Assembly: GCA_951406725.2 (NCBI GenBank)
Contig: OX597819.1
Span: 4,402,001-4,466,000, forward strand
DNA from: Octopus vulgaris
Taxonomy: Eukaryota
Direction: 5' to 3'
DNA: 64,000 bases
Below, piece by piece: positions 640 through 17,265 of this stretch. Position 1 is the stretch's first letter, and every line of letters begins with the position of its first letter. Under the pieces are notes generated by a model, which was given only the letters and a program-made list of their open reading frames with translations, was not told the origin of the DNA and searched no databases. Position numbers and translations under genes: made by a program.

Positions 640-677
640 CAGTACCGGTTTCGGTCATTTTGAGACCTTTTCAACTG
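640..677 (-). ncRNA. Minimal type I hammerhead ribozyme, U3:A8 variant
   Basis: Minus strand: CAG-UUGAAAA-GGUC(ucaaaau)GACC-GAAA-CCGG-UA-CUG. Helix I, helix II and a palindromic helix III are all formable. Confidence 0.75.
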
Positions 678-1004
678 TAACGATTAAATAATTAAATTTA
701 GAAAAATTAGAAGAAAAGTTTTTTTAAAAGAATATTTCTGTAGTAGTGTTCAGATATAAGTAGCATTCTGCCTTTCTCTGACTCCCTTGTTTGCACTTGT
801 GTGTTCGAGGTCGTTTTGAGTTCTTGGTAGGATAGGTGAAGAATAAGGAGGCTGATGTGGAGAGGGGGTGGGGAAATCTGGGAATGCCTTAATGGTCGTA
901 TTTTGAATGGTCAGTGGCTGACAGTAGTCGCAGTTCAATTCAGGAATTGTTTATGGAATTTGCGTAGGCGTTATACTGAAAGACATTAGTGACAAGGTTA
1001 AGGG

Positions 1005-1230
1005 GTGGAAGGTGGAGAAGTAGAAGAAGAAGAAGAAGATGACGATGTTGATGATGATGATGATGATGAAGAAGAAGAAGAAGAAGAAGAAGAAGAAGAA
1101 GAAGAAGAAGGAGAAGGAGAAGATGGTGGTGATGATGGTGGTGATGATGATGACGACGATGATGATGATAATGATGATGATGAAGAAGAAGAGGAAGAAG
1201 AAGAAGAAAAAAACAGAGAAGGGAGAATAT
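1005..1230. repeat. (GAA)n/(GAT)n trinucleotide low-complexity tract in the PLE 3' region
   Basis: Visible repeats. The poly-E/D and poly-K ORFs here are by-products. Confidence 0.9.
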
Positions 1231-1334
1231 GAATGGGTGAAAGTATAGCTGTGATGGGGCTGATTAGTAATGGATTCTATGGAGTGTAATATTTGTGTGT
1301 GTATATATTTCTTTTATTCTAAAGTTGAGGTATA

Positions 1335-12921: not shown

Positions 12922-13748
12922 CTTCTATCCATGTTACAAAATTTATAGGATATTTTATAGATCCTTAAAATGACTGACTTTTTTCTCTTTCCGTTTTATT
13001 CTAGTTTAAGAAATAATGTCTTGGAAGGAATCATAAAAAAAGTACGTAAAGACATTAGGAAAATGTATGCAGAGATAAAATCCCATCATTTCTTACAAAG
13101 GACTATAATAAAATGTAAACGCACTTATAGTAAATGAACCAAAATTCAGTAGCACTGAAATGGTATATTAGCAATGATATTGGACTTAAGATCATGAGTT
13201 CAATATCAAATCCATTCGGCCAGTTCACTATTTTCTAGTTCATCGACTAGAAATATATACTAAATTATTTTGGAATACTACCAGGCTGGAATATTTACGC
13301 CCTTGCGCACTGTGGGACGAAACCGAAACAAGTAACCTAACCTTAAAAGTATCCCCGTATCCACTTCTGTGACTTAGAAAGCATTTACATTGTTCTCAAT
13401 GAACATATTAATTGTCCGCAGTAGAATTACTCGGGAGAGCTTTGTGCGTGAGTGTGTATGCGTGCGCGCGTGTGTGTGTGTGTGTGTGTGCGTGCGTGTG
13501 TGTGTGTGTGTGTCTGTGTGGTGCGTATGTATATAAATATACTTCTATATATGTATACATAAATAGATACACACACACACATACATACATACATATATAC
13601 ATATATACATATATATATATATATATATATATATCACCATGATATATATATATATATATATATATATATATATCACCATGTTGAATCGCTAGCTTCTGCA
13701 CGCATTTTTTTTCTCTCCTTGTTTCTCTCCGTGTTTCTTTTCTGTGTA

Positions 13749-13786
13749 TCTTTCTGTTGAAGAGCGTAGGCTCGAAACGTAAAAGA
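13749..13786 (+). ncRNA. Hammerhead-like motif (A6U core) in a ~210-bp ORF-less element (13674-13885)
   Basis: UCUUU-CUGUUGA-A-GAGC(guag)GCUC-GAAA-CG-UA-AAAGA. Partial copies at 62983-63105 (+) and 11915-11955 (-). Confidence 0.65.
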
Positions 13787-15147
13787 CTTGTTTTATTTAT
13801 ATTCCTGACCGCCATACTAATACAATTGTTTGTTTGTACTCCACCTGCCTTCGTCTTTTGTTTATTTTCATAAAGCTTCCCGTTATATATATATATATAT
13901 ATCACTATGTATGGCAAGGGGATAAAGCAACATTCACAAACTCATGACGATAATTAGAAACGACTTAATGACTGTTTAGCACTTTTTAAATGTCACACTA
14001 TTGCTGTTTACAATCATTTAGCGAAATGTTCACCCTAGGTCACCACTGTTTATAAACATAAATCTCACGTTTTTGTTATGCTTTTCAGACCACAGAAGTC
14101 GTCCTACTTTTTTTTTTTAAATGATTATTGTTTGATATCTCATCAAAAAATAAGAGTCGTCAGAAATATTTTTACTTTAAATTGGCCCTTGTCACAACAG
14201 AATTACGTTTGGGGTTGCTACATCTCCTACTTGAGCTATATTAAATGAAGTAGCAGTTGAGCACTTTTTATGGCTTAATACGTATAAAGAGTTTGTATGA
14301 AAGTTACCCCCTTCCCTGTGCTCTATACACAATCTGTTGACAATTGTTCGCAATGTTCCAGCATTATTTCATATCTTCCAGTCGAAATGAATGTTAACTT
14401 ATTTAATTTAAATCACTTAATATTCTCAGTTTCCTATCTTTATGGTTTGAAAATTTTTTTTACAACTTTTCCGCTCTACTTTTCTCAGAACATAGATAAT
14501 TATTACCATGCTTGCCTTTAGTATGGTTTCATTCAATTTTATTTCAGAGAGCCTTTTCTATTATTTTCTTTTCGCCCAACTATAAAATTTGGAAGTGCTT
14601 ATTTTTATACAGCATTCTCACGATTACATACTTTCTTTGGGTTATTTCAGAAAAGAAAATCAATTAGAGCCCCACCCAACTAAAATTCATCCCATTCTTT
14701 TGACATAACACCGTTAAGGTTTCTCCAAACACGATATCAGCAATTCTTAGAACAGCAATTGTATCATTTTTTATCTGGTGAAAAAAAATACTTATTTTCC
14801 CCCCCTCCAAAGCACTGATAACATAAACGCTTACAAATAAAAATTCAGTTGGAAATTCTCACTGAAGTAATGTTTGTCTCCTGACCCATAAAACGTACAG
14901 AAACGTTTACACATACGTACATACATGCATACATACATACATACATACATACATACATACATACATACATACATACATACATACATACATACAAATACAT
15001 ACGTCTATGTGTATACACACACACGCGCACACACACATATGGATGCGCACACACACACACACACACACACACACACATATATATATATATATATATATAT
15101 ATATATATATATATATATATATATATGTATGTATGTATGTATATATA

Positions 15148-17265
15148 CCTCCCGAAAACAGTTAACGAGGAGTCGCTCCTGGTATCTTTTGATGTCATCA
15201 ACCTCTACACCAACATCCCACATGAATATGGTATAGAGGCAATTGACTTCTGGCTAGAAAAACACCCAGAGACATTCCCTGACCGCATTAACAAGACTTT
15301 TATTACAGAATCTCTCAAGTTCATTCTGACCAACAATTTTTTTCTCTTCGACGACACACACTACCGTCAAAAATGTGGTATTGCGATGGGTACCAAGGCT
15401 GCACCAGTCCTTGCGAACCTCATAATGGGTTTCTTCGAACTATCACTCTATGAAATATCACGCCAGAAATTTGGACATGTTTTCCGCACCTACCTAAAGG
15501 AAAACTGGAAAAGGTATTTGGATGATTGTTTCATCATATGGAAAGAACCTTATGAAAAACTCCTGGAATTCAAAACCATACTAAACATCATACATCCCAA
15601 CATCCAATTCACTATGGAATTAAGCAAACATCATCTACCATTCCTTGATCTCCTAATTATAAAAACACCTAAGAACCAAATCATAACAGACATCTACCAC
15701 AAACCCACAGACTCACAACAATACCTCCTCTTTAGTTCATGCCACCCAAACACACCAAGACAAATATCCCTTTCAATTTGGCTAAAAGGGTATGCACCAT
15801 TGTCTCGGATCCAAAAACACGAGAAATACGCCTTCAAGACCTCAAAAAAACACTATTACAACGCCAATATCCCTCCACCCTTATAGAGTATGGAATAAAA
15901 CGCGCCAAAGAACTAGATAACATTACACTGAAAACTACCCAACCTAACACCACACACAACCTCAAAATACTTCCATACATTTCCTCCCACAACCCCAAAA
16001 ATATCGAAGCATGCACCACAATCATACAAAACCTCAGTCTACTGTCAACAGACCCCAAAATGAAAAACATTATAAATACACACAAAATCCTCAAATGTAA
16101 AAGGCAACACAATCCTTTAAAAAAACTCTTGACAAATGCCAAACTTCACACACCACATCCACCCCCAGCAGTAAAAAAATGTGCACGCCCAAACTGTGGG
16201 ACATGCCCCCTCCTACTTGAAGGTTCTGAATTTACCTTCAAACAAGGTACGAAGTTTAAAATCAAGACTAACTTCTCCTGTTCCTCCGAGAACCTTATCT
16301 ACGTTCTCACATGCGCTGGTTGCCAACATAATTATGTTGGACAAACGAGTCTCCCGTTACGTAAACGAGTAGCGGTGCATAAAGAACAAATAAATCTCCC
16401 GGAATACCGACAAATTCCACTGAGTGACCACAAAGACTCATGCGCTAAAGACTTAAACCTCAAATTCTATATATTCCCCTTCTACCAATGTAAAGACGGC
16501 ATCACCACACAGGAGAGAATTAACAAGGAGAATCTCTTTATTGAAAAATTCCAAACACAACTTAATATACAAACTCCTCGTTGATCAAACTTCCCTTTTC
16601 TACCTCATTCTTCATGGATGGACTCACATAAATATATAAGGATACCATAGATTCATCACTTCAAGCAAAAACTTATATTCTTTAAATATCAATTTTACTA
16701 TTGTTGTTATTACCATCATCTTTATTATTTATGATATAACAATCTGAAATGCAATTGTCTATGCAAATTTATATAATTATAAAATAATATAAATAAAGTG
16801 TTAAAATCTGAAAGTTAAATTAACAAACAATTACATAAAAAAGATAATGCAAATGAAGCTAAAATGACAATTTTATAATTTGGGGTTTTATCAGCAGCCT
16901 TTATTGAAGAACTCAAAAGAGTTGTCTCCCCTTATTCACAACACAGGAATTGAAGAACCACAATTACTACTACTTCCTGTTTTGCCAACATCCTAAATTA
17001 AACCAAACAACACATGGCCTTAATCCCATTGGATCCTAATACCTCAAGGTAATTTTTTCGTGAACAATCATTAAACTCAAGATACACAACGAACTCACAA
17101 TGTATCGGAATACTTATTTTTTAATTTTTATACATATTTATTATTATTATTCTTTTGCAAAAAACAATGCAACTTTTTTTCCTCTTTCACATTTTTAAAA
17201 AACCTTTTCACCTAACTATTCTTGATAAGTCAAACTATGACGAAAACCGGTTTGAATAAATATAT
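15148..17265 (+). mobile_element. Neptune-like PLE, 5'-truncated, frameshift near 15745, with pLTR
   Basis: SFDVINLYTNI, GIAMGT, RYLDD; then CARPNCGTC and NLIYVLTCAGCQHNYVGQT. Stop at 16584; hammerhead at 17217. Confidence 0.92.
17217..17258 (+). ncRNA. Minimal type I hammerhead ribozyme, U3:A8 variant
   Basis: UAUUC-UUGAUAA-GUCA(aacua)UGAC-GAAA-ACCGGU-UU-GAAUA. Confidence 0.8.

Follow-up and report, generated by a model that had tools for sequence, protein, structure and literature searches.

Predicted minimal hammerheads with a U3:A8 core pair in a Penelope-like element setting in Octopus vulgaris

Three short motifs with the features of hammerhead ribozymes, here called H1, H2 and H3, are found along with remnants of Penelope-like elements (PLEs) in a 64,000-nucleotide (nt) stretch of Octopus vulgaris DNA (contig OX597819.1, positions 4,402,001 to 4,466,000). 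The window, as this whole stretch will be called, consists of eukaryotic DNA that is rich in repeats and contains long runs of (TA)n. Each of the three motifs has the core of a minimal type I hammerhead (N3-U-G-A-N-N8-A9, then G12-A-A-A15.1, then U16.1-H17, with a Watson-Crick pair between positions 3 and 8), and in each that pair is U3:A8. H1 lies at 640..677 on the minus strand (core UUGAAAA, U3 at 674 and A8 at 669); it has a helix I of 3 base pairs (bp), a helix II of 4 bp, the GAAA box, a CCGG palindrome in helix III and U16.1-A17, with a predicted cut after A17 at 643. H2 (7519..7557, minus strand, core UUGAAAA) combines a 7-bp helix I and a helix II of only 2 bp with GAAA, a CCGG palindrome and U-A at the predicted cut, which falls after 7526. 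H3 (17217..17258, plus strand, core UUGAUAA) has a 5-bp helix I, a 4-bp helix II, GAAA, the palindrome ACCGGU and U-U, and is predicted to be cut after U17 at 17253. Helix I closes the motif and helix II begins with the G:C pair G10.1-C11.1 in all three, the helix II of H2 being marginal. When two copies are cofolded, the palindromic helix III (CCGG, CCGG and ACCGGU) pairs between them for each motif.

An earlier note on this DNA had placed three U3:A8 motifs at these positions and held that searches restricted to the core CUGANGA would miss them. Both claims stand. The main descriptor, which describes a type I hammerhead with positions 3 and 8 unconstrained, finds all three motifs in the window and none in 20 dinucleotide shuffles (an approximate chance control, since such shuffling destroys microsatellites), and the cores read UUGAAAA or UUGAUAA. 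The folding of single copies is not above that of shuffled sequences (z -0.45 to -0.87), which is expected because helix III of such motifs needs two copies. With Rfam, H1 matches RF02275 at 22.9 bits, below the gathering score of 52, and H2 and H3 have no hammerhead match; the threshold of clan CL00010 is reached by 0 of the 3 motifs. Among the 150 of 223 Rfam matches listed for the whole window, all are driven by microsatellites. For practical purposes, positions 3 and 8 should be left unconstrained in descriptors, and helix II should be allowed to be either very short or very long. As a separate observation, a U-rich tract followed by a terminal CAG makes the 5' strand of helix I in H1 (677-675, minus strand) resemble a 3' splice site, and donor-like GGTAA words occur upstream of H2 and H3; a Drosophila PLE has an intron end at helix I (PMC4209133).

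H1 and H3 are located behind PLE genes. PLE1 (1335..3641, minus strand) is a 5'-truncated open reading frame (ORF) for a reverse transcriptase (RT) and a GIY-YIG endonuclease, with a CX4CxxC linker and a CCHH motif, and at its 5' end it borders on a run of TA and on a short interspersed repeat. Its 3' flank (589..1334, minus strand), which resembles a pseudo-long terminal repeat (pseudo-LTR), contains H1 and ends 55 nt past the predicted cut at a (TA)n microsatellite (391..588), the likely insertion target; a bias toward (TA)n has been described for such elements (PMC8557442). The flank that bears the hammerhead is found again upstream of the ORF in L002 and L003, two tandem relatives, and is for this reason taken as a pseudo-LTR; the PLE1 flank would by comparison be one as well. 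PLE2 (15137..16584, plus strand) is also a 5'-truncated RT and GIY-YIG ORF with the CX4CxxC linker, has a frameshift near 15745-15760 and is 54-58% identical to PLE1. Its pseudo-LTR-like 3' flank (16585..17270, plus strand) contains H3 and is followed by a short interspersed repeat. From the PLE stop codon to position 3 the distance is 661 nt for H1 and 638 nt for H3, both on the sense strand, in agreement with the 630-660 nt claimed before; in relatives the hammerhead is found 97-469 nt behind the stop. PLE1 and PLE2 each retain a single pseudo-LTR, without a surviving 5' copy. A third related PLE, PLE3 (23741..24661, plus strand), is a C-terminal fragment 65% identical to PLE1.

Pfam matches to RVT_1 and GIY-YIG, together with the GxKF and DKG motifs in PLE1, are those of endonuclease-bearing (EN+) PLEs. 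In PLE1, PLE2 and PLE3 the CX4CxxC linker precedes GIY-YIG, and a CX2-5CxxC linker between RT and endonuclease marks the clades Neptune and Nematis, which also possess a C-terminal GIY-YIG with CCHH and microsatellite flanks, as here (PMC8557442; PMC3846280). By these features PLE1 and PLE2 are of Neptune/Nematis type, a designation that spans both clades since the tree contained no named reference sequences. No relative was found among viral contigs.

H2 lies in a non-coding fragment of about 380 nt (7400..7780, minus strand; inner boundary approximate) between a truncated APE-endonuclease long interspersed nuclear element (LINE) ORF (7743-8843, minus strand) and a TA-rich run; a mariner-type transposase (PF01359; 5967-6878, plus strand) lies on its other side. 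This fragment is likely a solo PLE end. Its presumed tie to PLEs comes from the shape of the motif, in that the 2-bp helix II and the CCGG palindrome match the C3:G8 hammerheads of the relatives L002 and L007. Overall, the assignment of the motifs to the hammerheads of the PLE type is well supported, and for H2 it is likely.

The H1 region is abundant in other sequence data. With 592-1010 as query, 4 runs of the 24 listed were aligned at contig level and 80% likeness; they carry four organism codes, and two are presumably DNA and two of unknown kind. Each run gave 538-1974 matching contigs, and there was no RNA data set among the runs listed. Of the 28 listed places with variants at 3% or more in 592-1010, none is among the 13 core positions, which include U3 and A8. 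Only two fall within 637-680, and these are the two partners of the 10.1-11.1 pair (unphased). This abundant family is thus fixed for U3:A8.

The behavior of the 3:8 pair was also examined over a wide range of PLEs. PLE1 was aligned with 36 of its 120 listed homologues, and these were used to fetch 97 PLE-related loci, 80 from metagenomes (the best 80 of 362) and 17 from genomes, all probably host DNA in those assemblies. To these loci the H2 fragment shows no DNA similarity beyond short chance matches. A loose scan of the 97 loci gave 64 matches. Of the 52 in sense orientation, 50 have a Watson-Crick pair at 3:8, as do 6 of the 12 in antisense orientation; the eight exceptions have long, loosely paired helices and were set aside as noise, a judgment made post hoc. 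The strict descriptor gave 54 sense matches (5 antisense, and 1 match in 5 x 97 shuffled loci), which reduce to 43 distinct motifs. Watson-Crick pairs are found at 3:8 in 43/43 of these (35 C:G, 6 U:A, 1 G:C and 1 A:U), compared to a mean of 29.4/43 when columns were shuffled; the rows are related, so the associated p-value is not a clean probability. The claim that positions 3 and 8 covary as a pair is borne out by these counts. In the close clade, 13 aligned motifs (3 from the window, 10 from the loci) have C:G in 8, U:A in 5 and an unpaired state in 0, and helix I and the palindrome likewise change on both sides. The earlier note had also treated U3:A8 as the sign of one lineage, which did not survive: U:A recurs in PLE clades both with and without the linker, and the CCGG palindrome occurs with C3:G8 in the close relatives L002, L003, L004 and L007, so that CCGG is not tied to U3:A8.

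The G+C content of the U:A loci is 33%, that of the C:G loci 40% (6 vs 35 rows, p = 0.011, the rows not being independent). A broader proposal can be made from these data, although tentatively and with somewhat more doubt than confidence: the 3:8 pair of PLE hammerheads may have switched repeatedly among C:G, U:A, G:C and A:U, with U:A favored in AT-rich elements and about one family in five (8/43) invisible to CUGANGA searches. If so, hammerheads may in some cases have been reported absent from PLE clades as an artefact of the search, and these motifs would lend themselves naturally to testing how a tertiary base pair evolves by compensation. Relaxed hammerhead cores have already been tried (PMC8557442). 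Several individual loci are worth recording. L040:117 and L048:1969 are PLE hammerheads with G3:C8 and A3:U8 cores, L048 being sister to the U3:A8 family L017 in a quick tree. Among close relatives, the motif at L012:1861-1894 has almost no helix II, and in that at L001:3200-3245 the first core box is longer by one base. In L001, L002, L003, L004, L011 and L081 the RT ORF is preceded by an ORF in another frame, which reaches about 480 amino acids at most, with T-run junctions in several; an ORF1 with a frameshift has been noted for PLEs (PMC8557442). PLE genes also appear under bacterial names in bacterial genome bins (L081-L097, P0028, P0071, P0075 and P0078), where they are probably host DNA.

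The reading that best accounts for the locus, and one in which we have considerable confidence, is that H1-H3 are minimal type I hammerheads with U3:A8, two in the 3' flanks of Neptune/Nematis-type PLEs and the third likely a solo end, predicted to cut only as palindrome-paired copies. Minimal hammerheads are found in PLE pseudo-LTRs, and the schistosome motifs cleave as dimers at a low rate (PMC4209133; review PMC6765202). In the proposed sequence of events, a tandem PLE transcript would carry two pseudo-LTRs and hence two hammerheads, which would pair with each other in helix III (ACCGGU or AACCGGUU). Each would then be cut after position 17, probably slowly or aided by the protein of the element, and the cutting would trim multimeric PLE RNA. 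U3:A8 would retain the tertiary pair of the active fold, and the double change at 3:8 may be under selection for catalysis. The copies in the window are 5'-truncated with a single pseudo-LTR, so a partner in cis is likely missing, and these copies are probably inert.

A number of results weigh against this reading. No PLE ORF adjoins H2, and its parent element was not found. The 3' flank of PLE3 contains no hammerhead detectable by the descriptors or by a covariance model (R1, a weak model that gave nothing significant in 19 further loci). The lack of core variants in the H1 family is not significant alone (chance P = 0.39; Fisher P = 0.75), and a test of variant density for purifying selection is likewise not significant. 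The strict descriptor was tightened after the loose scan had shown 2/52 sense and 6/12 antisense matches without a Watson-Crick pair. The 2-bp helix II of H2 does not form in the cofold. In the cofolds of H1 and H2, U3 pairs with A17; as a C3-G17 pair is inhibitory (PMC3884650), the U3-A17 pairing may by analogy trap an inactive fold.

The last of these points also belongs to the best-surviving alternative, which is that the hammerhead fold persists for some function different from cutting (binding of the PLE protein, or a signal for splicing or translation) or is a passenger that the element can do without. Metazoan minimal hammerheads are weakly active in vitro, and other functions have been left open by the authors who described them (PMC4209133). 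Naiads proliferate without canonical hammerheads (PMC8557442). In the Anolis PLE the hammerhead is dispensable for insertion in vitro, its mutants causing no impairment, and in the RNA-seq data described there no reads end at the cut site (PMC11167929); both results also count against the main reading. The same Anolis hammerhead, however, is cut when the protein is added and requires the 3:8 pair for this (PMC11167929), and the pair belongs to the active fold, as is established (PMC3088659), and is kept in every one of the distinct motifs. A role without cutting is for these reasons considered unlikely. Covariation over dozens of PLE families supports upkeep of the active hammerhead fold.

A second alternative, proposed in the earlier note, is that H1, H2 and H3 represent three independent swaps from C3:G8 to U3:A8 that mark a hidden lineage. 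The flanks and helices I and II of the three are mutually dissimilar by BLASTN, save one weak 30-nt T-rich match, and on a wider quick RT tree U:A requires 8 changes, at least 7 of them forced by starred branches. That tree has 58 rows and SH-aLRT (Shimodaira-Hasegawa approximate likelihood ratio test) support only; L007 and L008 were dropped as too short, the states of 5 rows came from looser scans and 7 rows had no state. However, helices I and II show no relation from family to family in nearly every case, C:G families included, so the difference is no sign of independent origin. PLE1 and PLE2 are sisters with 95/97 support in a careful 20-row tree; 'independent' is therefore an overstatement for H1 and H3, which probably share one inherited swap. 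H2, with no ORF, cannot be placed. For the close clade, the approximately unbiased test does not reject one origin of U:A (p = 0.053). Three separate swaps in H1, H2 and H3 appear unlikely. Over PLEs as a whole, U3:A8 most likely arose more than once, by two transitions through a U3.G8 step; the entry Saccoglossus 1 in a published alignment has U3.G8 and fits such a two-step wobble path (PMC4209133, Fig. S3).

Chance matches in AT-rich repetitive DNA, for which the monomer folding energies and the lack of Rfam matches for H2 and H3 might speak, can be set aside as a practically negligible explanation, given the shuffled controls for the window and the loci and a sense strand and place behind the PLE stop that agree with those in relatives; for H1 and H3 position and conservation rule it out.

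The closest known systems are the Cercyon PLEs, for which Cervera and De la Pena reported U3:A8 in 2014 (PMC4209133); natural U3:A8 hammerheads had been described by Perreault et al. in 2011 (PMC3088659), so the core variant is not new. H1-H3 are ordinary new examples of the published U3:A8 PLE hammerheads and represent no new ribozyme or element type. They add Neptune/Nematis-type examples to a known core variant. That each of the four Watson-Crick pairs occurs among PLE families, with a hint of a link to AT content, is a modest addition. In the 2014 work the first descriptor missed the U3:A8 motifs, and a new core led to about 1,300 hits; the supplementary alignment (Fig. S3) shows a U3:A8 motif of Schistosoma mansoni beside a near-identical C3:G8 motif of S. 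japonicum (PMC4209133). The minimal hammerheads of the S. mansoni Cercyon pseudo-LTRs are the same as H1-H3 in being type I and minimal, in a PLE flank, with a palindromic helix III and U3-A8; the entry S. mansoni(4) begins with UUGAAAA and S. mansoni(3) with UUGAUAA, and most are single copies from truncated elements, as here (PMC4209133). Unlike Cercyon, the host PLEs described here have the CX4CxxC linker, and the hammerheads have a helix II of 2-4 bp rather than 7-8 bp and a palindrome of 4-6 nt, with positions 9 and 10.1 not separated by an extra base.

Other variants share some of these traits. The shrimp MjPLE, mosquito and Drosophila motifs have a palindromic helix III above the minimum, and the Marsupenaeus entry also has no base between 9 and 10.1; in contrast to H1-H3 these entries have C3:G8 (PMC4209133, text and Fig. 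S3). The natural U3:A8 hammerheads of Perreault et al. contain the same compensatory pair and are called active in vitro by citation; as cited here they are not tied to PLEs, unlike those described above (PMC3088659). The PAc hammerhead of the Anolis Poseidon PLE is, as is presumed for H1 and H3, located in a pseudo-LTR, and its cutting depends on the 3:8 pair, but it has a C3:G8 core, belongs to the Poseidon clade and has the ORF start inside the hammerhead (PMC11167929), whereas the tandem relative L002 has a separate upstream ORF between hammerhead and RT. Among the papers listed in literature searches, none appeared to map 3:8 states onto a PLE tree. Lunse et al. have reportedly described small variants of the PLE hammerhead with cleavage in the dimeric state, and Przybilski and Hammann (2007) are said to have treated 3:8 exchanges; these studies may already cover a short helix II and further 3:8 pairs.

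Additional hammerheads are found elsewhere in the window. With a wider descriptor (at most 89 nt in the helix II region and a tolerance of one core change) there are 7 matches, 3 U3:A8 and 4 C3:G8, vs 3 in 10 shuffles, and all 7 are Watson-Crick at 3:8. Three distinct C3:G8 motifs had been overlooked before. The first (28084..28181, plus strand; descriptor match 28088-28177) is canonical, with a 70-nt helix II region and the palindrome CAGCUG. The second (54713..54757, plus strand; descriptor match 54719-54751) has a 6-bp helix I and the palindrome CACGUG; it is well formed despite a U4C core change and could be a decayed copy or a natural variant. The third (55405..55482, plus strand; descriptor match 55409-55478) has a 51-nt helix II region and the palindrome CAUAUG. 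An inverted duplicate of it lies at 55067..55144 on the minus strand (descriptor match 55140-55071). The two are part of an inverted duplication (55023-55526) with 139-nt arms (55023-55161 and 55388-55526) and a central hairpin at 55236-55317, so that a C3:G8 hammerhead is present on both strands. Inverted ends similar to this arrangement have been described for PLEs; around it, no PLE ORF was found within 52000-59000. Two other candidates were not accepted. One at 55651-55693 (plus strand) has U3.G8, a non-palindromic helix III and E = 0.28, and is possibly a decayed C3:G8 copy. The other, at 21050-20957 with A3:U8, is AT-only and folds otherwise.

The region 3' to PLE3 has features of its own. 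At 24818-25320 (plus strand) there are tandem 93-nt units with GATTGG and TGACGTC words, followed by TATAAAA. GATTGG is presumably CCAAT-box-like and TGACGTC like a cAMP response element, and the flank looks like an RNA polymerase II promoter in a pseudo-LTR.

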